Part shown: positions 103-55,119 of the stretch, one piece after another
Layout: every line of letters starts with the position of its first letter
Position numbering within the stretch: position 1 is the stretch's first letter
NCBI GenBank assembly: GCA_964016885.1
Contig: OZ024752.1
Span: 43,152,001-43,216,000 of the forward strand
From: Eledone cirrhosa
Lineage: Eukaryota
Direction: 5' to 3'
Length of the DNA: 64,000 nt
Position numbers and translations under genes: made by a program
Notes under the pieces: model-generated
Database searches by the model: none
Told to the model about the DNA's origin: nothing
What the model saw: only the letters and a program-made list of their open reading frames with translations

Positions 103-410
103 CCAAAGATTAGTATGTTTCGTTGATTACTCAATGAATACAATTTTACAATAGATTAGAAGCACTCAACAATAAAAGTTTACCTGGAGTTTTTAATATT
201 ATTCAAAATATTAACAAATGAAAAATATTCTCACTATCAAAATATATACTTTATTATATATATTTCAGTACTGTGTTGTTGTTTTTTCAGTACGTCCTCA
301 TCAGACAAAATATATTTTGCCTGATGTACACAGTACCTCTGAAATATATATAATAAAGTATATATTTTGATAATGAGAATATTTTTCCTTTGTTAATATT
401 TTGAATAATA
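98..410. mobile_element. Fold-back, hammerhead-bearing element in (TA)n (probably Penelope-like terminal repeat remnant)
   Basis: About 198-275 is inverted at about 330-410; 98-212 recurs in reverse at about 36925-37035 and about 56310-56410. Confidence 0.55.
247..312 (-). ncRNA. Type I hammerhead ribozyme motif (more distant subfamily)
   Basis: TATTTTGT-CTGATGA (304-298); stem II GTACTG/CAGTAC with a bulged base; GAAA 266-263; T-ATAT-A-TA; stem I partner ATAAAGTA. Confidence 0.6.
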
Positions 411-1696: not shown

Positions 1697-2094
1697 GTTC
1701 GTTCTTTTTTCACCTGATTTTATTTTCATATAATATATATGTGTATATATATTATATACATTTGCTTTTATCTTCTCTCTTTCTGTGTTAAAAGTCAATT
1801 CAACGACTAATACTGTTTAATTTAAACTCGTTAACTACAGCTGTTTCTACATACACACACGTATATATATATAATGTATATATATATATAATGTATATAT
1901 ATAATATATATAATGTATATATATATATATATATAGTGGTGTAATGGAAGAATAAGCCCTCGGTATGTAAACATAGAGGAAATATATTTTTAAAATGTAT
2001 GCCATATAGTTTATAGTTTACTATATATAATATATATAAGATTAAAAAAATATTGTGTTCGGAGTTTTAGCTATATATATATTATATGTGCTTG

Positions 2095-2132
<38 letters not shown>

Positions 2133-2317
2133 TACTCGCATACATACATACATACATACGTGTGTGAGAGAGATAGTGCAAGCTAACCAGTAGCGAGAGA
2201 GGAGCAGTGTGATAGCTAATTTCGGACTCTGAAGTCGGGGATCAGTTTTCATTGCTGGACATTACTAAATCCAGTCCCTCATTTAAAGAGCAAATCAATG
2301 TATATCTATATAGATAG

Positions 2318-2352
<35 letters not shown>

Positions 2353-2758
2353 GTCATTACATGTATAGATATTTATATAGATAGATAGATATTTATACAT
2401 AAATATATATTTATATATATACAAGGCGACCGATATATTTCGGAATATGGCGTTGTTTTGATTTCTGTTATAACGAATTCATTCACCTTTTATTTCTCTC
2501 TATTTTTCGCTATTAATAGATTTTTTTCTGGTCTATATTTTGTGTTCTAATATTATTTTACGCCATAACCGAACCATATAAAGCTAGGTGTTTTGTTTAG
2601 TATCACCCATCAAACAGCAATTTAAACTCTTATATAATATTATATCTATTTATATATGAAAGAAAAGATTAAACTCAAACCTTTTCTCTGGCTAAAAAAA
2701 TATTTCCCAGATCCAAAGTATTTATTATTTAAATACTTTAACGGATTATCATACGAAG

Positions 2759-2790
<32 letters not shown>

Positions 2791-3288
2791 CTCAAACATA
2801 CCTAGATGTTTTATCCTAGAGAAGATAGAAACGATGTGTTGTGGCCTTGAAACCTATCCCAATGAAGTCTATTAAACAATTATGAAAGAATAATTGACAT
2901 TTTTCCAGTAGAAAATCGAACCCCAGTTCTGTATGTTAGTATCGATGATCGACAAATAATTTACCGCCACTTCTCAGTTGGGTTTGGGGTTGCTAGACTT
3001 AGAACACTTAAAATAAGTTGAATGGAGAGGGATGGGCATTAATGCCGTGAAACATCATCATCTCTCTCTCTGTTGCCTTCTGAATAAATATATAGATAGA
3101 TATATATATAATTGTTTCTATTTTTGGCACAAGGCCAGTAATTCCCACAGTGTATTACTGTTACTTTATTTTATCGACCCCGTAAGGATATAATTATATA
3201 TAAATATATTATCATTGAGAAAGGGATCACCTCAGATAATTAGATTTGTGTTTGCCTTTGTGCATGAACAACTTCGATAAAATCTTTA

Positions 3289-3359
<71 letters not shown>

Positions 3360-4688
3360 CTCGGGGTGTCCCAAAAGATGTATTCACACTTCAACAGCTT
3401 TCTAATAAAAGTGTGTATACATTTTAGGGAATACTTTCTATCTATATATATATAATAGCTGATTATGCAAGTGTGTATATATTATATCTATGTTGACCAC
3501 ATGTATGAATTATACGCATTATATAGTAAATATCTGAATATATATGAGTGTGTGTCATATATATATATATGTGTGTGTGTGTGTGTATATATTTATATAT
3601 ATATATGTGTGTGTGTGTGTATATATTTATATATATATGTGTGTGTGTGTATATATTTATATATATATATGAGTGTGAGTGTATATATTTATATATATAT
3701 ATATGAATGTGTGTGTCTATATATATATATATGTGTGTACATATTTACCTCAATACCATTTAAGTATAGGTACTACTACAAAATTAATATTTTTGACTTT
3801 TGTGGTGGTTTTTACAAAAATCACGTTTTATGGGGAATATTTCGTTCCTTTAATCACAAGACAATGAAAATATATTTTAGAAAAATCTAATAGCTAAAAT
3901 GTTTTAAAATTTAATTATTATTTGTTTTCAGAATTCGATATTTGCTCTTGTTTAGTTTCGAATTTCTTGTGTGTTCTGAGATTTCTTCAATCGATCTGTA
4001 TTCGATAGGATATTTTTACACCAATATATTACTGCTACTTAAGTGAGTTGTACCGTCTAAGTCTATTAATTTATATTTATAGGAAAAATAAGGAATGGAA
4101 TTTTTTATTTTTATTATTATTTAAAAGGCCGTTGAAATTATAATCTAAGTCATAAACCATCTCCAATGATAATTGGAGAGTTTTGAACGAATGGCATTTA
4201 TTTTACATAAAGTATGTGCGTGTCCACAACACTTAAACAGCAACCAATATAATAAATAACTAGGTTTGACATTTACAATTTAATATTTTAGTTTTATATT
4301 TATATTTTCCTTTGTTAATATTAGTTGGGTGGGGTCCTTTTCTCGAACGTTCGATCACACTTTTTTTCTTTTTCTTTCGTTCTCTAAGATTTGTTTGCAA
4401 CACTTAAAAAAAAAACTCTTTCGTTGCCATATTTCTAATAAAAGTCACAGGTTATGATTGTTCAAATAATATTAAAAATAAACAAAAATTCAAAAATGTT
4501 GTTAGTTTTAGTTAGTAATGAAAGTAACTTTCTCCTTATAGTGTTTGAAAGATCATAGCTTAAAGGTTCTTAATTAGAATTATGATGGAAAGGCTTTTAG
4601 ATTTTTTTTTTTTTATTGCGCCATTCTTTGGCAATACTGAATTCTCTCCTCTTGGCGGAAGGAAAAATACATGCTTTCTTTCTTTTAA

Positions 4689-4731
<43 letters not shown>

Positions 4732-5291
4732 TGTAATATATATTTATATATATATATATATATATAGGAACAAGTAAGACCCCGACGGCTAATTCAGTCC
4801 AGAATTACTTGTTCCTATTACCCACTCTACTACCCTAAGTATTGAGTACTTTGGTGCGTTATGGTCCACTTGGTTCCTTACCACATTTCCTTCGTTATAT
4901 ATATATATATAGGAAAAGAGTCGGACCCACTCTAGTACCCTAAGTATCAAGCACTCTGTTACGTTATGGTCCATCTGGTTTCTTACTACACTTTCATTGT
5001 TTTATATATATATATATATATCATCATCATCGTTTAACGTCTATCTTCCACGTTAGCATGGGTTAGACGAGTATTGTCCCACTTGAAGCAGGGTTGGTCG
5101 AGTGATCGTGTCTCGCTCGTATAGGGCTGTCTGGCAGGCTTTCTACGGCTGGATGCCCTTCCTAACACCAACCACATTTACAGTGTGGAATATATATATC
5201 AGTATGTATCGGTGTATATATATATGTCAGTGTGTATATATATATATAATAATTGCCTTATGTTGTTTATTACATAACTATATATATATAT

Positions 5292-9287: not shown

Positions 9288-9772
9288 CATTAAAACACCT
9301 GTAGGAGGCCAGCTAAACCTATATAGGTGTGAGCTATAACATGATATGACCACATACCCTGTCATTAACCCTTTAGCATTTACATTACTCTACATATATG
9401 GTTGTATTTTCACAGTAAAGGCTTTAACTTACATAAGGTCGAAGCTACGAGATTTTGATATTATATATTTTGAGAACAATGTCTTAACATAAGTATAAGC
9501 AGCCAGTTATGGCCAGTTTGAACAGAAAGAGGTGAGAGAATTCTGGCCAGTTTAACTGGTAAAGGATTAAAATACCTGCAGGAGGCCAGCTAAACTAACA
9601 TAGGTGTGAGCTATAACATGATATGACCTTGTCCCCTGTCATTAAAATACCTGTAGGAGGCCAGCTAAACTAAGATAGGTGTGAGGTATAACATGATATG
9701 ACCATGTCCCCTGTCATTAAAACACCTGTAGGGGCCCAGCTAAACCTATATAGGTGTGAGCTGTTATGTAAC
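9288..9772. repeat. About 73-bp tandem repeat (4 units) interrupted by a MITE
   Basis: Recurring cattaaaacacctgtaggaggccagctaaacctatataggtgtgagctataacat. Confidence 0.85.
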
Positions 9773-9793
9773 ATTTCCTTTTTATTTTGCCAG

Positions 9794-10008
9794 ATCTCGG
9801 TGTTGATGATGAAGATGAAGAGGCTGTGCCACTGCCCAATGTAAATGCTGCCATTCTGAAGAAAGTGATCCAGTGGTGCACATACCACCGAGATGATCCT
9901 CCACCACCTGAGGATGATGAGAACAAAGAAAAGAGGACAGATGACATTTGTTCCTGGGATACAGAGTTTTTGAAAGTAGACCAGGGAACTCTGTTTGAAC
10001 TGATTTTG
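9794..10008 (+). CDS. SKP1: SKP1 coding exon 2 of 4 ([29 protein letters not shown]...[11 protein letters not shown])
   Basis: cag acceptor 9791-9793, gtaag donor at 10009; SKP1 BTB/POZ motifs; frame joins exon 1. Confidence 0.97.
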
Positions 10009-11347
10009 GTAAGTTTGGTCTTATTCGAAGTTTTTATACCCTCTACAGCAGCAGATCTCAATGTCTACAAATGTAGTACCGGTGTGTGGGCTCAGTGAGC
10101 TAAGTTCAAAATTTCAAGTCTTAACCCCTTAATCTCTATAAACATCACATCTCTTACTCTTTACCCACCATATACCCATAACACCATACTCATTATCCCT
10201 GTTACCACTGAGTAGAGAGAGCTCTTCTGTTGCGTAAATAACCAACAACTTCTTTAGTACTGATGCCATGCAGAGTACACCCTTTAGAGATCATGCTGAA
10301 AAATAGTTGATAGGAACTACCCCCACTAGGCTTAACAGAGCATGGTGTTAGTGTGCATGAATAACTGGGTATAAGAGGAATCAGATGTAGTGTGCAAGGC
10401 AAAATTCTGCTGTTTTTTTTTATATTTAATGCATGTGGATAAGGAATGGTAGGTGAAGAAATGCCAGTGGAAGGCAGCTACAATAGAAGAAAACTGGGAA
10501 AGATCTGGGGTGGCTAGGGCTGATCTAAAAAAACTGAAGTTCACAGAGATGATGATGAAGGAACACTGCTTGTGGGCAGAGACTGCTGAAGAGGACCCAT
10601 CCAGCCCATATAAAAACACAAAATGATGTTAATTTTTATGTCTGGTCCCTCAGGCTGTCACTGTCCCATTTATTCTCTTCATAATATTGAGTACTTTGTT
10701 AAAAACTTAATATACACATTATTGGGTATCCATTCTTCTTTATCTATATATAAATTTCTGCGATTCTGTCACAACACGTAAAGAGAGAGGAGTAGTTTGA
10801 CTACCTCATACTACTCCTCTCTCTTTACGTATGCATGTGTAAAAGGAAGGGAGGGGATGGTGAAAAAACTACAGCAAAACCATGGTTGGCGTTCTATTTG
10901 CAATGCTGTGTGTACGTGTATGTTTGTGTGAGTGTGTATTTTTGTACAAAAAACACCCAGCAGGCACTGTAAAAGTGGTTGGTGCTAGGAAAGGCATCCA
11001 GCCAGAAACAGTTCTATATGGACGAGACACTGTCACCGACCCAACTTAGCTCTAAATGGGATAAACCCGTCTATCTCTTGCTAGCGTGGAAGATGGACAT
11101 TAAACGATGATGATGATGATACTCATACATATAAATGTATGTATATGCACACACATATATACACATAATGCATCAGCGTGTTGAAAAAAAATTCTTGTTT
11201 TTAAATATTTGCCACTTTTGATTATTATAGTGGGTCTGTGTTTTATGGCAGAATCCTGTTACCGTTAGTCTGATAAGGAACTCTACCACTAATGTTATTT
11301 ACTGGTATATAATTGTTATGGTTTATTTACCTTTGTCGTTGCTACAG

Positions 11348-11488
11348 GCTGCTAATTACCTGGATATCAAGGGACTGCTTGATGTTACCTGTAAAACAGT
11401 GGCTAACATGATCAAAGGCAAAGCTCCTGATGAGATACGCAAGACGTTTAACATAAAGAACGATTTCACTCCTGCAGAAGAAGAACAG
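11348..11488 (+). CDS. SKP1: SKP1 coding exon 3 of 4 ([47 protein letters not shown])
   Basis: 141 nt, phase 0-0, AG/GT boundaries; F-box-binding region of SKP1. Confidence 0.97.
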
Positions 11489-11775
11489 GTACCAGTAATT
11501 TTGTCATTGATAATTATGTATTGTCACCTTATTTTCACCCCTGCAGAAGAAGAATAGGTAGCGCTAATTTTGTCATTAATACTTATGTGTTGTCACCTTA
11601 TTTTCACCCCTGCAGAAGAAGAATAGGTAGCGCTAATTTTGTCATTAATACTTATGTGTTGTCACCTTATTTTCACCCCTGCAGAAGAAGAATAGGTAGC
11701 GCTAATTTTGTCATTAATACTTATGTGTAGTCACCTTCTTTTCACCCCTGCAAAAGAGGAACAGGTATCAGTAGT
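11464..11775 (+). repeat. 69-bp tandem repeat derived from the SKP1 exon 3/intron junction (5 units)
   Basis: Units begin at about 11463, 11532, 11601, 11670, 11739. Confidence 0.92.
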
Positions 11776-24876: not shown

Positions 24877-25669
24877 ATGTATATATTTATACACACACAC
24901 GCATAAATATACGAATCTATGTTTATTCATATACATATATAATACATTTGAATATATATATATATATATATATACATTTATATGTTCAATTTTCATACAA
25001 TAACCGTTAAATCTTTTTAGTAAGGCAATCCTCTCGTTTTCTCAAGTATTTATTAGTAAAAATACGAGGAAAATATTTATACACTACAAGTAAATAAATA
25101 AATTATATAACAAACACCAACTAAAAAAGGTGTTTAATAATATTGCAACTAGAGTGTTGTTGATTTCACAATGCAGACGATAACATTATTTCAAGTAATC
25201 ACTTTCCCTGTAAATAATGGCTAATTAATTTTCAAGAAGACCAACTTTATTTTATCATTCTTCATCAGATATATATTTTAACTTTTTATATTGGTGATAA
25301 GATAAGATAGCTTATAGATATTAATTTTGCTTATTGCTTTTTCTATCTACCATCTGTGAGTTGCCAACCTTCTAAGTATTATTACCTGCATGACCATAAA
25401 ATGGAGGATTGATTTCCAACATAAAAACAACTGATAATAGACCTCCAATTCGTGCCCAGCCCATGAATGTATTCCTACACCTCAGGCGAGAAAAGAAAAT
25501 ACACGAAACAAAAAATTAAATTCCTTTAACTCTCGTAGAATACAACGGTTTAATACAAAGAGAGACGTTAATGATATATTTATGTTATATTTTCATCACT
25601 AAAAATAGCTAATTATTAACTTTCATTGAAATATTTCTCTGATTGTTGAGGGACTCTGTTTTCATTGTA

Positions 25670-28860: not shown

Positions 28861-30072
28861 CTCGTTTGTGGAATTAAAAGACTTGGTCATTCGATAAAAA
28901 TCAACACGACCATGTTCGTGCCATGCTACAGCAGAGGCCACCCTTCGTTGGTGCCTCTTATCTCAATATATAGACTACATGTGTAATGGTGCCTCGTCTA
29001 GTTTATGGGAAAAATAAGAAACAATCTCGATTTCTCGTCTATATATCATCTCAACATGGCGTGGTAGATTTGTGTAACAAACCTACCCCATACATTCATG
29101 TCCCTCTCTCTCTCTTATCTCTCTCTCTCTCTCTCGTGGTTTCAACCAGGAAACTTTATGATTATGATAATAATAATAATAATAATAATAATAATTGTTT
29201 CTACTTTTTGGCACAAGGCGAGCAATTATATCCCAATGCATTACTGGTACTTTATTCTATCGACCCCCGTAAGGATGAAAGGCAAAGTTAACCTCGGCGG
29301 GATTTGAACTCGGATCAGATCATACAGGGAGGTAACTCTATGCTTCAAAGCATGGCAACCGGCAATTAGCTCTCCCCTCCCTCCAGTGTATTACCGGTAC
29401 TTTATTTTATCGACCCCCCCCCCCCCCGTAAGGATGAAAGGCAAGGTTAACCTCGACGGGATTTGAACTCAGCCCGTAGTAAAGGGCCGCAGCGCCCAAG
29501 GCCAGCAATTTGGTGTGGATTGGGTGGAGGGAAAGTCGATTAATTGGACTCAGTACTTGGCTGCTTCCTTATTTTATCGATGTCGGCAAAAATTGAACAA
29601 TAATACTGGTTTCTTAATATAGGGACAATGCCAGCGATTTGCTGGGTAGGTGTTGTTTGTGATGCTGTCGATGAAATAGACCCTAATTCATGACTGGTAC
29701 TTTGTGTCGACCTCGGAAGAGTGAAAGGTGAAGAGTTGGCCTCGGCGAAGATTTACTCAGAAAGTTATAAAAAAAACAAAAAACATAACTAAACACCGCA
29801 AGGCATTTTGTCCAACGCTCTACCAATCAATATTGATAATGTTTCTACTTATGGCACAAGGCCAGCAATTACCCCAGTGCATTACTGGTGCTTTATTTTA
29901 TAGAACCCGTAAGGATGGGCGGTAAAGTTAACCTCGGTGGATTTGAACTCAGAACGTAAAGGGATATAACTCTATGCTGCAAAGCATGGTGTCTGACGCT
30001 CTACCGATACTGAAGAGAAAAAAGAAGAAAACGTGATTTCTCTAATTCTAATTGGTGTTATTTCTGTTGACT

Positions 30073-32800
30073 TAAATTGTCATCAGGTTTTCTTTACCCT
30101 TCCTTTTAAACCAACCCTTCAGTAGGGCCTGGCTAAATTGTCATCAGGTTTTGTTTACCCTTCCTTTTAAACTCACCCTTCGGTAGGGCCTGACTAAATT
30201 GTCATCAGGTTTTCTTTACCCTTCCTTTTAAACCCACCCTTCGGTAGGGCTTGACTAAATTGTCATCGGGTTTTGTTTACCCTTCCTTTTAAACCAACCC
30301 TTCAGTAGGGCCTGGCTAAATTGTCATCAGGTTTTGTTTACCCTTCCTTTTAAACCAACCCTTCGGTAGGGCCTGACTAAATTGTCATCAGGTTTTCTTT
30401 ACCCTTCCTTTTAAACCCACCCTTCGGTAGGGCTTGACTAAATTGTCATCGGGTTTTGTTACCCTTCCTTTTAAACTCACCCTTCGGTAGGGCCTGACTA
30501 AATTGTCATCAGGTTTTGTTTACCCTTTCTTTTAAATCCATCCTTCAGTAGGGCCTGGATAAATTGTCATCAGGTTTTGTTTACCCTTTCTTTTAAACCA
30601 ACCCTTCAGCAGGGCCTGGCTAAATTGTCATCAGGTTTTGTTACCCTTTCTTTTAAACCCATCCTTCGGTAGGGCCTGACTAAATTGTCATCAGGTTTTG
30701 TTTACCCTTTCTTTTAAAACCACACTTCAGTAGGGCCTGGATAAATTGTCATCAGGTTTTGTTTACCCTTTCTTTTAAACTCACCCTTCGGTAGGGCCTG
30801 ACTAAATTGTCATCAGGTTTTCTTTACCCTTTCTTTTAAACTCACCCTTCGGTAGGGCCTGACTAAATTGTCATCAGGTTTTGTTTACCCTTTCTTTTAA
30901 ACCAACCCTTCGGTAGGGCCTGACTAAATTGTCATCAGGTTTTGTTTACCCTTTCTTTTAAAACAACCCTTCGGTAGGGCCTGACTAAATTGTCATCAGG
31001 TTTTGTTTACCCTTTCTTTTAAAGCAACCCTTCAGTAGGGCCTGGCTAAATTGTCATCAGGTTTTGTTTACCCTTTTAAACCAACCCTTCAGTAGGGCCT
31101 GGCTAAATTGTCATCAGGTTTTGTTTACCCTTCTTTTTAAAACAACCCTTTGGTAGGGCCTGGCTAAATTGTCATCAGGTTTTGTTTACCCTTCCTTTTA
31201 AACCCACCCTTCGGTAGGGCCTGACTAAATTGTCATCAGGTTTTGTTTACCCTTTCTTTTAAAGTAACCCTTCGGTAGGGCCTGACTAAATTGTCATCAG
31301 GTTTTGTTTACCCTTTCTTTTAAAGCAACCCTTCGGTAGGGCCTGACTAAATTGTCATCAGGTTTTGTTTACCCTTCCTTTTAAACCAACCCTTCGGCAG
31401 GGCCTGGCTAAATTGTCATCAGGTTTTGTTTACCCTTCTTTTTAAACCAAACCTTCAGTAGGGCCTGGCTAAATTGTCATCAGGTTTTGTTTACCCTTTT
31501 AAACCAACCCTTCAGTAGGGCCTGGCTAAATTGTCATCAGGTTTTGTTTACCCTTCTTTTTAAAACAACCCTTTGGTAGGGCCTGGCTAAATTGTCATCA
31601 GGTTTTGTTTACCCTTTCTTTTAAAGCAACCCTTCAGTAGGGCCTGACTAAATTGTCATCAGGTTTTGTTTACCCTTCCTTTTAAACCAACCCTTCGGCA
31701 GGGCCTGGCTAAATTGTCATCAGGTTTTGTTTACCCTTCTTTTTAAACCAAACCTTCAGTAGGGCCTGGCTAAATTGTCATCAGGTTTTGTTTACCCTTT
31801 TAAACCAACCCTTCAGTAGGGCCTGGCTAAATTGTCATCAGGTTTTGTTTACCCTTCTTTTTAAAACAACCCTTTGGTAGGGCCTGGCTAAATTGTCATC
31901 AGGTTTTGTTTACCCTTTCTTTTAAAGCAACCCTTCGGTAGGGCCTGACTAAATTGTCATCAGGTTTTGTTTACCCTTCCTTTTAAACCAACCCTTCGGC
32001 AGGGACTGGCTAAATTGTCATCAGGTTTTGTTTACCCTTCTTTTTAAACCAAACCTTCAGTAGGGCCTGGCTAAATTGTCATCAGGTTTTGTTTACCCTT
32101 CTTTTTAAACCAACCCTTCGGTAGGGCCTGGCTAAATTGTCATCAGGTTTTGTTTACCCTTCCTTTTAAATCCATCCTTCAGTAGGGCCTGGCTAAATTG
32201 TCATCAGGTTTTGTTTACCCTTCCTTTTAAACCCACCCTTCGGTAGGGCCTGGCTAAATTGTCATCAGGTTTTGTTTACCCTTCCTTTTAAATCCATCCT
32301 TCAGTAGGGCCTGGCTAAATTGTCATCGGGTTTTGTTTACCTTTTCTTTTAAACCCATCCTTCAGTAGGGCCTGGCTAAATTGTCATCAGGTTTTGTTTA
32401 CCCTGTCTTTTAAACTCACCCTTCGGTAGGACCTGACTAAATTGTCATCAGGTTTTGTTTACCCTGTCTTTTAAACTCAACCTTCGGTAGGACCTGACTA
32501 AATTGTCATCAGGTTTTGTTTACCCTTTCTTTTAAACTCACCCTTCGGTAGGGCCTGACTAAATTGTCATCAGGTTTTGTTTACCCTGTCTTTTAAACTC
32601 ACCCTTCGGTAGGACCTGACTAAATTGTCATCAGGTTTTGTTTACCCTTTCTTTTAAACCCATCCTTCGGTAGGGCCTGACTAAATTGTCATCAGGTTTT
32701 GTTTACTCTTTCTTTTAAACCCACTCTTCGGTAGGGCCTGGCTAAATTGTCATCGGTCTTTGTTTACCCTTTCTTTTAAACCCACCCTTTGGTAGAACCT
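30073..32800. repeat. 61-bp tandem satellite, about 45 copies
   Basis: Unit taaattgtcatcaggttttgtttacccttccttttaaaccaacccttcggtagggcctgac; starts at 30073, 30134, 30195 and so on. Confidence 0.97.
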
Positions 32801-36722: not shown

Positions 36723-37474
36723 CAGAATATTAATAAATGAAGACATTCACATAATCAAAATATGTTTTATTATATATATTTCGAAGCATAGAGTTACGTC
36801 CCCTTATGATCTGAGTTCAAATCCCGCCGAGGTTAACTTTCCCTTTCATCCTTACGGGGTCGATAAAATAAAGTACCAGTAATGTACTGGTTAAATGCTG
36901 GCCTTGTGCCTAAAATAGAAACAATTATTTTGAATAATATTAATAACTCCAGAAAACTTCATTGTAGAGTGCTTTTAATCTATTGTAAAACTATATTCAT
37001 TGAGTAATCAATGAACTATATTAATCTTTGGTTATATATATATATATTTATGTGTGTGTGTATAACCCACCAAAGTACTCAATACTTAGAGTAGTAGAGT
37101 GGGTAATAGGAACGAGTAGGACTCCAGAATTAGCCGTCGAAACGGCTTGAGCTCAGCCGTCGGGGTCCTACTCGTTCCTATTACCCACTCTACTACCTTA
37201 AGTATTGAGTACTTTGGTGCGTTATGGTCCACCTGGTTCCTTGCCACACTTCCTTCGTTATATATATATATATATATTTATGTGTGTGTATGTGTGTATA
37301 TATATATTTATATATTTATGTGTGTGTGTGTGTATGTATATATATATATATATATGCAAAAGTTCTATTTAAAATTGTTGGGATACAACAAGTAAATATT
37401 TTTATAACTGATATAAAGCACTCGACAAGTATTTGGAGTAGATATACGATATTAATAAATGGAAACTATATTTA

Positions 37475-37568
37475 TAAAACCATATTTATTTCATTACACA
37501 TATTTCAGGGATACCAAATTAAATTATGGTATGCCTTCATCAGACAAAATACAATATATAACAGTTTT
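37475..37568 (-). ncRNA. Type I hammerhead ribozyme motif (inverted twin, GUA cleavage site)
   Basis: Reverse complement of the copy at 37602-37695 with one change (AUA to GUA, U-A to U-G); core CTGATGA 37543-37537, GAAA 37506-37503. Confidence 0.8.
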
Positions 37569-37601
37569 ACAAATAAGCTTTGACGTACCCTATTAAAATG
37601 C

Positions 37602-37695
37602 AAAACTGTTATATATTGTATTTTGTCTGATGAAGGCATACCATAATTTAATTTGGTATCCCTGAAATATGTATAATGAAATAAATATGGTTTTA
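37602..37695 (+). ncRNA. Type I hammerhead ribozyme motif
   Basis: CTGATGA 37627-37633; stem II AGG-c-ATACCA/TGGTAT-c-CCT; GAAA 37664-37667; minimal stem III with ATGT loop; AUA cleavage triplet 37673-37675; stem I TATTTTGT/ATGAAATA. Confidence 0.8.
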
Positions 37696-37723
37696 TAAAT
37701 ATAGTTTCCATTTATTAATATCG

Positions 37724-37762
<39 letters not shown>

Positions 37763-38552: not shown

Positions 38553-39255
38553 ATATGGGCAAAACCAGGAAAATGAACGAATACACAGTTCCATCTCATC
38601 AGTCGATCGCTTGAGATACGTTTGTTTATAATCTGTGTGTGTGATGTATGTATGTATATATATATAATAGAGAGATTTGACGAAGTATAGTGGAGGGTTT
38701 CTTACCCCACCACACACACAGTCTCTTTCTCGCTCTCCCTCTCTTCTCCACATTAAACAAAAAGTTTTGGTTTCGCAGTCTCAACGGCTTTTTGTCTATG
38801 GAGGTTTTGGTCTACCTAGCAGAGACAATGAACTCACATCGTCACCACTCTCTGTGTTGAAGCAACCCCCCCCCCCTCACTCTCTGTGTTGAAGCCAACC
38901 CCCACCCCACCCCACTCTCTCTCTCTCTCTCGTTGTATGTTTGTAAAAATATACACCCTATGTTTATTTAGTACTCTTGATCACCAACTTGTTATCTTAT
39001 TGAGTCTGCTCTCCTTAAAACCTCTTATATTTAACCCTTGGGCACAAAACCAGTATGTAAAGGGATTATTAAGGTATATAGTAGGACTGCTGGTGAATTC
39101 TTTCAAACATTAGAGGGTTTTTTTGTTTTTTTTGTGTCATTTCATTGTTAAATATTTTAAAATCTAACTTCAAATATAATTTTCCACAATTTAGCTTTAT
39201 ATTCCTATAGCCTGTCTGCTAGAAATAGCAAGTAAATTTCCCCCCCTTTTTCCAG

Positions 39256-39475
39256 TTGTTTATTATTTATTATACACGTAAATACATGAACAGATGGAGA
39301 CAACAGAAGGAGTGCAAACCCACACAGAGGGGGAAGGACGGGGCTGGTGAAACGCTGTAGCGATGTGGGCTGCGTCCTTTTTTAGGGTTTACCGGCTACA
39401 TAGCCTATTCGTTGTTTATTTGCACGATCTTAATCGATCTTACGACGTTGAGTTAGTTTTGTTTGTAGGAAGAAA
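39256..39475 (+). other. Candidate 5'UTR exon or alternative start of Suv4-20
   Basis: ccttttttccag-like acceptor, CpG-rich body, AA|gtaagt donor. Confidence 0.3.
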
Positions 39476-39977
39476 GTAAGTCGAATTATTTTACATCACC
39501 ATTGCTATTACTGCCCCTCTCTCTCTCTTTCTGTGACTCCCTCTCTCTCTCTCTCCAACGTAGAGCCCCCACTTGAAATGGATTACCTAAAATTATTTAA
39601 ACCAAAAGTAGGCCACGGTACAAACGTAGTCTCACACACACACACACACACACGCACGCACACGCACACACATGTATATGGGTGCTCACTGATGTGAAAC
39701 CTCGTTGTTCCGCTTCGTTGATGAGAACTGGATCACCGTAAGGGCTGATGCTATTGATACTTCTGTTGTTGATGGCTTTGATGTGAATGACCTACCTATA
39801 TCTCTCTGTCTGTCTGTCTGTCTATCGACATATTGTTGTTATTGATGGTAATTGATATGGATGTTATTTCAGTAGTGAAATGGACCTCTCTCTCTCTCTC
39901 TCTCTCTCTCATGACATAAATACACACAAACATGTTGTGTGTGTGTGTTATATTTCTATTCTATTTGAATTTCAGTA

Positions 39978-40293
39978 AAAGATTGTAAGTTGTGGGGTCT
40001 AAGATTGTAACTTGTGGGGGTCTAAGATTGTAACTTGTGGGGTCTAAGATTGTAACTTGTGGGGGTCTAAGATTGTAAGTTGTGGGGTCTAAGATTGTAA
40101 GTTGTGGGGGTCTAAGATTGTAAGTTGTGGGGTCTAAGATTGTAAGTTGTGGGGTCTAAGATTGTAACTTGTGGGGGTCTAAGATTGTAACTTGTGGGGT
40201 CTAAGATTGTAACTTGTGGGTCTCTAAGATTGTAAGTTGTGGGGGTCTAAGATTGTAACTTGTGGGGGTCTAAGATTGTAACTTGTGGGGTCT
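39978..40293. repeat. 22/23-bp minisatellite, about 14 copies
   Basis: Unit aagattgtaa(g/c)ttgtgggg(g)tct. Confidence 0.95.
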
Positions 40294-40637
40294 ATTCTGC
40301 ATGAAGAACTCGATGTAATCCATATGTTGAAAATGTTGTAGGTTAAGATAAATCTCGGAAAAGAATAAAACATTAAAAGGAAAACAGAGTCATGATATAA
40401 GTTAAAACAATGAAATAAAATTTAAAAAATCAAGTCATATATATATATATATATATATATAGGTTTAGGAATAACCAAAGAGTGCTTAGAAGAAATACAT
40501 GGTTTTATAAGCTAACAAGGGTTTCATCCGTACCCTAAGGAAGGGCAATATATCTGCGTGTCTGGGCACATTGATATATTTGTCAACGAAACTATATATA
40601 TATATATACGATATATTAACAAATGGAAACTATATTT

Positions 40638-40733
40638 ATAAAACCATATTTATTTCATTATACATATTTCAAGGACACCAAGTTAAATTATGGTGTGCTT
40701 TCATCAGATAAAATATAATATAGAGCAGTTTTA
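40638..40733 (-). ncRNA. Type I hammerhead ribozyme motif (diverged copy)
   Basis: CTGATGA 40707-40701; stem II AAG-c-ACACCA/TGGTGT-c-CTT; GAAA 40670-40667; AUA site; two compensatory pair changes relative to the 37.6 kb copies. Confidence 0.8.
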
Positions 40734-41239
40734 TAAATTGTGCATGCATGTATGTATGTATGTAATTTCGGTACCCCTTCTCCCCCTTTTCAAAGCCTGT
40801 AGACCCCCGCTTCTGAGATCGTTATGGTATTTTTATCTATGTTGGGGCGGAGGGAACCTTACCTCCCGCCCTCTCTAAGTCCGTTACAGCAATTTGATAG
40901 TCGGTACTTTTCAAATCAGGTTTTATCGCCGTCTGTCAGGAGTTTTTTCTTGTTCTTTCATTTTTCCTTGGAATAATAATAATAATTGGCTGTTGTTTTT
41001 GTTCTTTTTCGGTGTTGCCTATTGAAATATATGTAAGAATAATTTATTATTTCATTAGATGTTGCAATTAAATTGTAGTTAAATGTTAATTACTTAACGG
41101 CCTCTCGTTTTGCGGCAGCCGGTTCTTGACTGTGTGAATGTGAGGGAGGAGGGGAGGGGAATTACGGCTTAGTGGTTTAACGGTCTTTTGAAGCAGCCAA
41201 GCATATGTACACTCCCTCACTTCAACTAGTTATGTATAT

Positions 41240-41943: not shown

Positions 41944-44900
41944 CTTCTGTATATATAATATATATACTGTGTTATATATAATATAGATACTGTGTTGTTA
42001 TATATCCCTAACTCTTCTGTATATATAATATATATACTGTGTTGTTATATATCCCTAACTCTTCTGTATATATAATATATATACTGTGTTGTTATATATC
42101 CCTAACTCTTCTGTATATATAATATATATACTGTGTTGTTATATATCCCTAACTCTTCTGTATATATAATATATATACTGTGTTGTTATATATCCCTAAC
42201 TCTTCTGTATATATAATATATATACTGTGTTGTTATATATCACTAACTCTTCTGTATATATAATATATATACTGTGTTGTTATATATCACTAACTCTTCT
42301 GTATATATAATATATATACTGTGTTGTTATATATCCCTAACTCTTCTGTATATATAATATATATACTGTGTTGTTATATATCCCTAACTCTTCTGTATAT
42401 ATAATATATATACTGTGTTGTTATATATCCCTAACTCTTCTGTATATATAATATATATACTGTGTTGTTATATATCACAAACTCTTCTGTATCTATAATA
42501 TATATATTGTGTTATATATCACAAACTCTTCTGTATATATAATATATATATTGTGTTATATATCACAAACTCTTCTGTATATATAATATATATACTGTGT
42601 TATATATCACTAACTCTTCTGTATATATAATATATATACTCTGTTGTTATATATCCCTAACTCTTCTGTATATATAATATATATACTGTGTTATATATCA
42701 CTAACTCTTCTGTATATATAATATATATACTGTGTTGTTATATATCACAAACTCTTCTGTATATATAATATATATACTGTGTTATATATCACAAACTCTT
42801 CTGTATATATAATATATATACTGTGTTATATATCACTAACTCTTCTGTATATATAATATATATACTGTGTTATATATCACTAACTCTTCTGTATATATAA
42901 TATATATACTGTGTTATATATCCCTAACTCTTCTGTAAATATAATATATATACTGTGTTGTTATATATCACAAACTCTTCTGTATATATAATATATATAC
43001 TGTGTTGTTATATATCACAAACTCTTCTGTATATATAATATATATATTGTGTTGTTATATATCACAAACTCTTCTGTATATATAATATATATACTGTGTT
43101 GTTATATATCACAAACTGTTCTCTATATATAATATATATACTGTGTTATATATCCCTAACTCTTCTGTATATATAATATATATACTGTGTTGTTATATAT
43201 CACAAACTCTTCTCTATATATAATATATATACTGTGTTATATATCACAAACTCTTCTCTATATATAATATATATACTGTGTTATATATCACAAACTCTTC
43301 TGTATATATAATATATATACTGTGTTGTTATATATCCCTAACTCTTCTGTATATATAATATATATACTGTGTTATATATCACAAACTCTTCTGTATATAT
43401 AATATATATACTGTGTTATATATCACTAACTCTTCTGTATATATAATATATATACTGTGTTATATATCACTAACTCTTCTCTATATATAATATATATACT
43501 GTGTTGTTATATATCACTAACTCTTCTGTATATATAATATATATATTGTGTTGTTATATATCACAAACTCTTCTGTATATATAATATATATACTGTGTTG
43601 TTATATATCACAAACTCTTCTCTATATATAATATATATACTGTGTTATATATCACTAACTCTTCTGTATATATAATATATATATTGTGTTGTTATATATC
43701 ACAAACTCTTCTGTATATATAATATATATACTGTGTTATATATCACAAACTCTTCTCTATATATAATATATATATACTGTGTTATATATCACAAACTCTT
43801 CTGTATATATAATATATATACTGTGTTATATATCACAAACTCTTCTGTATATATAATATATATACTGTGTTATATATCACAAACTCTTCTGTATATATAA
43901 TATATATACTGTGTTATATATCACAAACTCTTCTGTATATATAATATATATACTGTGTTATATATCACAAACTCTTCTGTATATATAATATATATATTGT
44001 GTTATATATCACAAACTCTTCTGTATATATAATATATATACTGTGTTATATATCCCTAACTCTTCTGTATATATAATATATATACTGTGTTATATATCAC
44101 TAACTCTTCTGTATATATAATATATATACTGTGTTGTTATATATCCCTAACTCTTCTGTATATATAATATATATACTGTGTTATATATCACAAACTCTTC
44201 TGTATATATAATATATATATTGTGTTGTTATATATCACTAACTCTTCTGTATATATAATATATATACTGTGTTATATATCACAAACTCTTCTGTATATAT
44301 AATATATATACTGTGTTGTTATATATCCCTAACTCTTCAGTATATATAATATATATACTGTGTTGTTATATATCACAAGCTCTTCTGTATATATAATATA
44401 TATACTGTGTTGTTATATATCACAAACTCTTCTCTATATATAATATATATACTGTGTTGTTATATATCACAAACTCTTCTGTATATATAATATATATACT
44501 GTGTTATATATCCCTAACACTTCTATATATATAATATATATACTGTGTTGTTATATATCACTAACTCTTCTGTATATATAATATATATACTGTGTTATAT
44601 ATCACAAACTCTTCTATATATATAATCTATATACTGTGTTGTTATATATCACAAACTCTTCTGTATATAATATATATATACTGTGTTATATATCACTAAC
44701 TCTTCTGTATATATAATATATATACTGTGTTATATATCACTAACTCTTCTGTATATATAATATATATACTGTGTTATATATCACTAACTCTTCTGTATAT
44801 ATAATATATATATACTGTGTTATATATCCCTAACTCTTCTGTATATATAATATATATACTGTGTTATATATCACTAACTCTTCTGTATATATAATATATA

Positions 44901-45106
44901 TACTGTATTATATATCACTAACTCTTCTGTATATATAATATATATACTGTGTTATATATCACTAACTCTTCTGTATATATAATATATATACTGTATTATA
45001 TATCACTAACTCTTCTGTATATATAATATATATACTATGTTATACATCACTAACTCTTCTGTATATATAATATATATACTGTGTTATATATCACAAACTC
45101 TTCTAT
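41944..45106. repeat. 44/47-bp AT-rich tandem satellite, about 70 copies
   Basis: Unit aactcttctgtatatataatatatatactgtgtt(gtt)atatatc(c/a)c(t/a). Confidence 0.97.
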
Positions 45107-45234
45107 TTAAACAATCTAACCTCTCTGTTGTATTTCTGTTTCTATCTAAAATGACATAAACACATTCAGCTTGGAACTATTATTACTTGACAGTATAAAC
45201 CATCTTAAGATATATATCTATATACATATATTAC

Positions 45235-54070: not shown

Positions 54071-54802
54071 GTGAGTTGATTCTTCACAGCTTTTAAATAT
54101 ACAAATTGATATTTTGTTTACAGAAATGTCATTGAAATGTATAGTCTAGGCTGCTGTAAACTTTAAATATGGTTCTATTTAAGGTTTAACTGAACATTGC
54201 ATAGAAAATTGTATTCTCACAAAACACCTTGCCTAGGTTTGTGCCTTAGATAGGAAATTTCAAAGCGTAGATCTTTGATCTCGCAACACCTATGGAGGCT
54301 CTATAAAACTTTCGCTGGTTCTGCTACACTTCGGGCTGAGGAGTGCAAACTCTCCAAGTATCGGTTGCTCTTCGACAGGTTTGCTGTCGAACCTCTAGCA
54401 GTGGAGACTTCTAGTGTCCTTGACCCTAGGGCTACGTTCCTACTTAGCACCTATAAGCACTGAGCTGGCTAGCCGCAGGTGTAAGCCTTGCGAGATGGAA
54501 TGGCTCTTCGAGCTCATCTGCCTTACCATCCTCCAGGGAAACGCCTTCTCCATTGTGTCCGCCGGGGCCGTGGGGTGGCCAACACATGGAACCCCATTTG
54601 TTCTTAATACAGAGAGATGGGGGTGTTCGGACCTGCTGTGCAGCATCAGTTGTCTGCCTCAATGTGTTCTCTCACTCCCTCTTTAAAGTATATTTAGCTG
54701 TGTAATATATACATATGTTTACTGTTTCAAGTGTTTATATAAAGGATTCTAAATTGTTTTGAATTGATTATTGTTAAAGTAATTTTCTCTGTTTGATTGT
54801 AG

Positions 54803-54989
54803 GCGGAAACAAAACCGAGTCCCTATGTTGGTTGGTTGTATTGCTGAATTAACTAAACTTGAGGAAGAACAACTCTTGAAACCTGGTTTAAATGATTTTA
54901 GTGTTATGTTTTCTTGTCGGAAGAACTGTGCCCAGTTATGGTTGGGGCCTGCATCTTTTATTAACCACGATTGCAGACCTAATTGTAAG
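54803..54989 (+). CDS. KMT5B: Suv4-20/KMT5B coding exon 4 (LVGCIAEL...[33 protein letters not shown])
   Basis: SET-domain LWLGPA-FINHDC motif; AG/GT boundaries. Confidence 0.97.
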
Positions 54990-55119
54990 GTAACCTTGCT
55001 GTTTTTATCTCTTTTGTTTTGTTTTGTAGGTCAGTTGGCTTCCTATGAGGTTCCATCTTGGGATATTTTGGGGGTAGTTTAGTGGTAGGAGGCTTCAGTC
55101 CTATTATACACACACGCAC

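Follow-up and report, generated by a model that had tools for sequence, protein, structure and literature searches.

Paired stem changes in a truncated Penelope-like element end of Eledone cirrhosa were probably inherited from source lineages selected for a hammerhead fold

Introduction

Do the paired base changes that set a solitary hammerhead motif at 40.6 kb apart from its relatives at 37.6 kb reflect selection on an RNA structure, and which kind of element brought them there? The locus lies in a window of 64,000 nucleotides from Eledone cirrhosa (assembly GCA_964016885.1, contig OZ024752.1, positions 43,152,001 to 43,216,000 of the forward strand), and coordinates given without a locus name refer to this window. 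A sequence-only reading had interpreted two double substitutions in stem II as a sign of structural selection in the source elements and had proposed at least two active subfamilies of a ribozyme-bearing retroelement, either Penelope or a retrozyme. By themselves, two double changes in a comparison of two sequences are weak proof. Here, we have analyzed the locus together with its relatives throughout the genome and conclude that the 40.6 kb unit is very probably the truncated 3' end of a Penelope-like element (PLE), whose paired changes were inherited from source lineages likely selected for a predicted self-cleaving fold.

Results

The hammerhead copy at 40.6 kb

The insertion occupies positions 40606-40738 on the minus strand and represents the 5'-truncated 3' end (a pLTR piece of ~130 bases) of subfamily A of a putative Hydra-type PLE. 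It starts 31 nt upstream of the hammerhead core, and its 3' terminus is the first of two 3' end sites used by the family, with a (TA)n target repeat (40592-40607, no strand) at the 3' junction. Unit limits of 40606 and 40735 had been suggested before; the former stood, but at the far end the unit extends to about 40738. All parts of the motif are read on the minus strand. The 5' strand of stem I (40708-40715), which has its partner strand at 40651-40658, is followed by the core heptamer CUGAUGA (40701-40707, CTGATGA 40707-40701 on the sequence). Stem II (40671-40700) has 10 positions, the fourth of which is a conserved C-C mismatch, and a 10-nt loop; both double changes sit in this stem. The segment 40660-40670 comprises the GAAA of the core (40670-40667) and an 8-nt self-complementary helix III, so that the base order is GAAA, AUAUGUAU and the H17 base. 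When hammerhead numbering is applied to the sequence, the AUA triplet is found at 40658-40661 and the predicted cut falls after it, between 40659 and 40658. The 3' flank (40608-40650) is highly conserved, and 40 of 41 nt just downstream of the hammerhead are identical in subfamilies A and B. Rfam hammerhead models gave no match in the 64-kb window at gathering thresholds.

The hammerhead of this copy is identical to those at both ends of a near-complete parent locus (L109). Five other copies match it exactly over 119 nt and its mean difference from 33 subfamily A copies is ~2 nt; these data indicate that the copy is young and that its pairs were inherited. Its solo status was confirmed in the sequence, and since it carries neither an ORF nor a partner in cis, the copy is most likely inert. 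Selection worked in the source elements, and there is no sign of function at the 40.6 kb locus itself.

The element adjoins, but does not include, a CpG-rich host sequence with GC boxes (about 40770-41200, no strand), which is a candidate promoter. The presence of this region had been noted earlier and was borne out, with a single genomic match and a CpG o/e of about 1.0. Such a neighborhood, together with a SET-domain fragment 14 kb away on the plus strand (54783-55079), would suit a scenario in which the host recruited the copy as a regulatory RNA element beside a promoter. We consider this scenario highly improbable: the copy is a recent one whose pairs were inherited, a dimer partner in cis is lacking and, at one family motif per about 240 kb of a 3.0-Gb genome, promoter neighbors are to be expected. 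A second CpG-rich stretch (39200-39800, o/e 0.6-1.0) lies 1 kb from the copy. Apart from Skp1 exons at 9772-10095 and 11231-11554 (plus strand) and the SET-domain fragment, the frames scanned (78 of 95) gave no clear host gene signal. The window also contains tandem arrays (29980-32700, 39975-40295, 41950-45200) with units of 61 bp, 22/23 bp and 44/47 bp, and CTGATGA is present in the 61-bp unit but hammerhead stems are absent. Another repeat (37065-37275, 430-634, 4806-5016) consists of a long inverted repeat with a GAAA-capped hairpin in (TA)n.

Comparison with the copies at 37.6 kb

Two copies of subfamily B are located at 37.6 kb and form a head-to-head pair. One arm (37599-37725, plus strand, core 37627-37667) ends in (TA)n, and the inverted arm (37356-37590, minus strand, core 37503-37543) runs through a ~90-nt tail (37356-37444) into (TA)n; this tail recurs at L109 5697-5787. 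The 40.6 kb copy had been counted as the third hammerhead. This is correct with respect to the pair at 37.6 kb, but remnants of other hammerhead families are also present in the window. Head-to-head remnants of another hammerhead-bearing family at 150-430 (hammerhead 285-350, core at 303 on the minus strand) have the same kind of tail motif and resemble matches at L142 and L022. A possible further hammerhead, probably of another family, lies at 25230-25268 (minus strand); here GAAA is followed by a perfect A/U palindrome and the 5' strand of stem I is apparently replaced by (TA)n.

When the 40.6 kb copy was compared with the plus-strand copy (core from 37627), we found the paired changes as claimed: stem II pair 2 is A-U instead of G-C, stem II pair 6 is C-G instead of U-A, and stem I pair 2 is A-U instead of G-U. 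CUGAUGA and GAAA are indeed unchanged. AUA is unchanged against this copy only, since the minus-strand copy (core from 37543) reads GUA. The aligned units differ at 10 positions, five of them in stems I and II, every one of which keeps its pair; the remaining differences concern unpaired bulges or loops (four) and the 3' flank (one), and none was found in the core.

Genome-wide abundance and subfamily types

The exact 45-nt hammerhead motif was matched 3,228 times in the genome and a degenerate pattern of stem II 12,409 times, and the reversed-pattern controls gave none in either case. Using a structure descriptor on 672 kb of loci picked around such hammerhead motifs, we obtained 189 matches, but none in three shuffles. 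The excess of exact copies over reversed ones and of descriptor matches over shuffled ones argues against a chance motif. In a hand count of the first 100 matches listed of the 12,409, type A, that of the 40.6 kb copy, accounted for 31, type B, that of the 37.6 kb copies, for 29, type B2 (G-U at pair 2) for 17, and types E (A-U pair 2, U-A pair 6) and A2 (G-U at pair 5) for nine each; a stem II pair was broken in the other five. Type C, in which pair 5 is G-C and a G is inserted, is left out by this pattern, as are types D and F.

ORF remnants were linked to each of the types B, B2, E, C and A2. Their divergence from the ORF of type A was as follows, with dN somewhat low because codons in windows under 55% identity were removed: dS 0.48-0.55 and dN/dS 0.12-0.14 for B (three loci), 0.49-0.54 and 0.13-0.16 for C (three loci), 0.40 and 0.17 for B2, 0.31 and 0.18 for E, 0.07 and 0.46 for A2, and 0.04 and 0.58 for another A copy. 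The values for B indicate that the A and B lineages have long diverged under protein selection. The hammerheads of A and B are 88-89% identical, the 230 nt upstream of them are 66-73% identical where aligned, and most of the 3' UTR is beyond alignment by BLASTN. Each of the types at 40.6 kb and 37.6 kb is a subfamily of its own with a linked ORF, and the family comprises at least five amplified ORF-linked stem II types. The proposal of at least two active ribozyme-bearing subfamilies is upheld by these data, since A and B were both amplified and both are linked to the same RT/GIY-YIG-type ORF under purifying selection.

The parent element and its protein

At the near-complete parent locus L109, hammerheads flank an ORF of the RT plus GIY-YIG type, and the order is 5' pLTR with hammerhead, ORF, 1.4-kb 3' UTR, pLTR, ~90-nt tail and (TA)n. 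The ORF (about 1952-4129) is interrupted by frameshifts, and the distance between the two cores is 3,884 bp, an expanded microsatellite included. A further locus (L108) shows the same layout plus an inverted copy, and its ORF is likewise frameshifted. A search for a linked GIY-YIG and RT ORF had been recommended; we found one, with the same hammerhead at both of its ends in L109. The frames of both loci carry RWR, SDKT, YRDD, CNCRNKSNC and IVY..YVG, as well as CDLCIEE (CxxC before the conserved E) and CRH (CxH after the conserved N). By eye, only one Cys lies between IVY and YVG, which may bear on the absence of a CCHH motif expected for the endonuclease of the Hydra clade. A protein search retrieved 371 relatives of the element ORF; of the best matches, those with a name came from Argonauta hians (35-41% identity). 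In Pfam, 3 of 70 aligned members matched RVT_1 and 3 of 70 GIY-YIG. The element's own frames gave neither of these domains in Pfam, and the sole match of five natural frames was a weak Telomerase_RBD (E 0.024, below cut-off). Searches of solved structures with the element's frames gave no match. We assign the element to the Hydra clade on the basis of motifs compared by eye with published Hydra elements, and this label is to be read as putative. A short open frame through the hammerhead was considered as the end of the ORF and ruled out, the true ORF stopping ~1.4 kb upstream. At L113 (2606-3889, minus strand), a second, more distant Hydra-type ORF is nested beside a family element, to which it is about 37% identical in the endonuclease part.

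Insertion anatomy

Insertion ends were mapped in 30 copies taken in genome order. The 3' ends were located at +99-105 from the core in 16 copies, at +189-199 in 13 and elsewhere in one, and a TA-rich repeat followed directly in 28 copies. The 5' ends lay at variable distances (38-490 nt) upstream of the core. Twelve of the 30 copies (L114-L143) belong to a cluster of 5' truncation or inversion points at 78-88 nt upstream, two of them with one junction. An apparent preference for 5' truncation at the foot of the extended stem I turned out to be a query effect, and none of the 30 copies had its 5' end at 31. Among 60 pattern loci (a few of them overlapping), 32 motifs were alone within 1.5 kb, 23 were arranged head to head and five had one same-strand neighbor; the spacing to such a neighbor was 150-450 bp at two loci, with one neighbor each. 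Tandem hammerhead arrays were not found among these 60 loci. pLTRs from partial tandems, inverted 5'-truncated copies and the tail are all present in the family.

These data bear on the possibility that the unit is the monomer of a non-autonomous retrozyme spreading via circular RNA. It is true that the unit is a non-coding type I hammerhead of very high copy number and that, according to the accessible part of a preprint, retrozymes are proposed to originate from PLE ends (bioRxiv 10.64898/2026.07.22.740005). Nevertheless, a retrozyme is exceedingly improbable when the 5' ends are that variable, when none of 60 loci is a tandem array and when the unit lines up colinearly with the 3' UTR of copies that have an ORF. 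For the 40.6 kb copy, its insertion anatomy and the lack of tandem arrays at the 60 loci exclude this reading. Of the two kinds of element envisaged at the outset, Penelope held, and the retrozyme had to be dropped.

Just past the first 3' end site, a motif (ACTCC..GT(T/C)GAGTGCT) is kept across otherwise unalignable families (L109 1815-1845; L094, L006, L038 and L133; window 150-190 and 36945-36980), and it is a candidate stem-loop for the start of reverse transcription or for protein binding. A TATA box in the conserved 3' flank is unsupported, since the motif is absent from four related families and the Penelope promoter described in the accessible part of PMC2377424 is TATA-less.

Selection on RNA structure

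The paired changes can be followed through their intermediates. At stem II pair 2, G-U was present in 1,878 of the 12,409 copies but the A-C mismatch in only 72, and these 1,878 copies are descendants of a few founders rather than independent events. Pair 5 was A-U in 79, G-C in 43, G-U in 14 and A-C in one of 142 copies, a set that was obtained from 154 copies by removing 12 gapped or chimeric ones. In contrast, the wobble U-G at pair 6 (184) was not commoner than the mismatch C-A (252). The G-U state of pair 2 is a wobble intermediate between the 37.6 kb and the 40.6 kb types.

Several features of pair 6 were recorded along the way. By hand count, about 35 of the first 100 U-G matches listed share a rare loop variant, which occurs in 3 of the first 100 listed matches of the 12,409 pattern and in 4 of the first 100 listed C-A matches; nothing else hints at a small amplified U-G lineage. 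In a rough hand count, G>A changes on the type A sense strand seemed about three times commoner than mirror C>T changes. Several inverted pairs carry the same pair 6 change in both arms, which suggests that the errors predate insertion.

For a tree test, we used 205 of 232 copies (most of type D being among the 27 left out) and called a change shared when it fell on a branch leading to four or more loci and private otherwise. Pair-keeping changes made up 12 of 16 shared but 59 of 171 private stem changes (p=0.002), in a tree built from the same 119 columns as tested. The core had no shared and 20 private changes versus 19 shared and 79 private ones in loops and bulges (p=0.04), and many of the loci had been fetched by core-containing queries. 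With thresholds of 3, 4, 5 and 8 loci for a shared change, the stem test gave p 0.003, 0.014, 0.029 and 0.059, respectively, and the core test p 0.007-0.12 across thresholds. Compared with the 3' flank, which is itself constrained, the core was not significantly better conserved (p=0.33), and in this respect the outcome is in part the one that the sequence-only reading had named as unfavorable to its own claim. Exceptions occur among the amplified changes: one pair of stem II is disrupted in subfamily F, and the distal extension of stem I is broken by two shared changes. For 19 representatives of near and distant families, 96% of the positions were paired and 13 of 19 pairs showed double changes, with slid controls reaching at most 54%; this comparison is partly circular, as the distant families were found by a pairing descriptor. 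Taken together, selection on RNA structure in the source elements, as originally proposed, is well supported by the enrichment of pair-keeping changes among shared ones and by the spared core; pairs 2 and 5 and the core show it most clearly.

One may ask whether the paired changes arose by mutation without selection, either through DNA template switching in a quasi-palindrome or through A-to-I editing fixed by reverse transcription. All four changes are transitions within an inverted repeat, most of the shared single changes are interchanges of A-U and G-U and there are few intermediates at pair 6, which would speak for such processes. Template switching, however, would alter both sides together and would erase the C-C mismatch; instead, one-sided G-U intermediates were amplified, and the mismatch is present in 131 of 142 copies. 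Editing should raise A>G, and among private stem changes we saw no excess of A>G (19/4591) over T>C (22/5073). Neither process explains the spared core. A mutational origin is already largely refuted by these data and strikes us as very unlikely.

Features of the hammerhead fold

The core CUGAUGA was exact in 121 of 142 copies, and 10 more vary only at the free N7 position; the UH site was kept in 141 copies. Together with GAAA, helices I and II with covariation and a short palindromic helix III, the characteristic features of a type I hammerhead (CUGANGA/GAAA/UH) are present. The first stem II pair was A-U in 130 of 142 copies and thus differs from G10.1-C11.1. This G-C pair is common in type I hammerheads but not universal. 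In the accessible Hydra rows of PMC8557442, U/U is often found at this site.

Stem II position 4 carries a C-pyrimidine mismatch in 22 of 26 distant or variant matches, although the descriptor did not require it. Three steps beyond, an A-U pair is invariant in all 19 representatives. A tertiary or protein contact at the mismatch or at the A-U pair is a hypothesis only.

Helix III reads AUAUGUAU in 116 and AUAUAUAU in 16 of 142 copies. It is self-complementary across families, one AU-to-GC double change included, and 100% paired in the 19 representatives, of which the distant ones had been chosen by pairing. The duplex is weak (-2.2 kcal/mol) and a hairpin form is impossible, and helix III is predicted to form by pairing of one ribozyme with another. 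At L014 847(+), L056 925(-) and L068 1869(-), we observed a family whose helix III reads ACCACUGGU; it lacks the position 4 mismatch and is close in form to the published Hydra-1_Obim motif.

In the RNAfold minimum free energy structure, stem I gains 5 and 12 bp on the two sides of a 5-nt bulge (z -1.9; 7 of 200 shuffles equally good). The first part of the 3' flank is thereby predicted to pair with 40717-40738, and this lengthening of stem I may explain part of the conservation of the flank. Support for the distal helix is mixed.

Discussion

By analogy with the Poseidon element of the green anole, the 40.6 kb copy could have arisen as follows. The GIY-YIG endonuclease of the element would nick a TA repeat, reverse transcription would begin within the RNA at the site ~100 nt past the core, and a halt after about 130 nt would leave the 5'-truncated copy. 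Two internal start sites are suggested here because the family, like the anole element, has two end sites that define a tail; in the anole element, two 3' end sites were traced to two internal start sites (PMC11167929, as far as its accessible part goes).

In tandem or read-through precursors, two hammerheads might join through their palindromic helix III, with a cut after AUA that is probably slow or aided by protein, and source copies without the fold would have left few descendants. We expect dimeric cutting because helix III forms no hairpin and only a weak duplex, yet is self-complementary across families. Dimer cleavage of PLE hammerheads has reportedly been described by Lunse et al. Such motifs cut only as dimers, and slowly, according to the accessible part of PMC4209133, and that of PMC11167929 describes protein-assisted cutting in the anole element.

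The main rival leaves the element as it is and holds that the fold was retained because the element's protein uses it for binding or as a template structure, and not because it cleaves itself. It earns this rank because the anole element was inserted in vitro without need for cleavage. In the accessible part of the same source (PMC11167929), core mutants left insertion in vitro unaffected and the cut site was not the end of any RNA-seq read; PMC4209133, as far as accessible, leaves room for functions besides cleavage. In our data, conservation of the flank beside the first 3' end site (40 of 41 nt) exceeds that of the hammerhead. On the other hand, a mere binding structure would hardly account for shared changes avoiding the catalytic positions while N7 varies, for the near-constant UH site or for a helix III that is self-complementary across families, as dimeric cleavage would need. 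We therefore consider a non-catalytic role unlikely and favor inherited changes under selection for a self-cleaving fold. A stronger version, in which the stepwise compensation is a fossil record showing that PLE hammerheads are required for transposition in vivo, and in which the mismatch, the A-U pair and the bulged stem I extension make up an undescribed tertiary contact, or a docking site for the protein of the element, that switches cleavage on, appears doubtful to us.

How does this family relate to known systems? Covarying hammerheads at PLE ends, including solo and opposite-strand copies, are published (accessible parts of PMC4209133 and PMC8557442), as are hammerhead-bearing Hydra PLEs in an octopus (PMC8557442). 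In the literature searched on Penelope, hammerheads, cephalopods, pLTR promoters and compensatory G-U intermediates, we found no description of the present family. The accessible main text of that Octopus vulgaris repeat paper (PMC13282606) contains no occurrence of hammerhead, ribozyme or Hydra; its supplements or repeat library may hold the family. The family itself appears to be new but the principle of covarying PLE-end hammerheads is known.

The closest relatives are the elements of the Hydra clade, as far as they are described in the accessible parts of PMC8557442. Shared features are RW(K/R), DKT, a CxCX5C linker and CxxC/CxH around E and N, and, with the C-terminal EN+ PLEs of this clade, a C-terminal GIY-YIG-like domain, (TA)n targets and a tail. 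A canonical type I hammerhead near the 3' end and inverted 5'-truncated copies are also common to both. The printed start of Hydra-1_Crog matches the family ORF motif by motif when compared by eye, RWR included. The two differ in size, Hydra elements being generally under 3 kb but the family unit about 3.9 kb with a 1.4-kb 3' UTR, and in the tail, which measures 30-40 bp in the general scheme of that paper but about 90 nt here. The hammerhead of Hydra-1_Obim from Octopus bimaculoides (File S1) is unlike that of the family in sequence, and the 8-nt A/U-rich helix III combined with the C-pyrimidine mismatch of stem II is absent from the accessible Hydra rows of File S2. The metazoan PLE-type hammerheads in the accessible part of PMC4209133 have a bulged base and G10.1-C11.1, but the first stem II pair of the family is mostly A-U, and its stem I has 8 bp with a predicted bulged extension.

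The anole element Poseidon PAc (PMC11167929, accessible part) resembles the family in two tail-defining 3' end sites, AT-rich targets and a pLTR hammerhead. It belongs to a different clade and its ORF starts inside the hammerhead, whereas in the family about 240 nt separate the core from the ORF start downstream. Metazoan non-LTR retrozymes (accessible parts of PMC7229834 and bioRxiv 10.64898/2026.07.22.740005) are alike in being short non-coding repeats with a type I hammerhead, but the family has no tandem monomers (60 loci), variable 5' truncation and a linked autonomous ORF.

Whether hammerheads help PLEs to move or merely ride along is stated as an open question in the accessible text of PMC8557442. 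The family offers more than 12,000 motifs, subfamilies dated by their ORFs and G-U intermediates that survive, which makes it good material for measuring selection on ribozymes, and its record points to a maintained function. Compared with the systems already known, the solo copy is ordinary, and the gain is not a new system but a well-resolved example of stepwise compensation together with structural detail.
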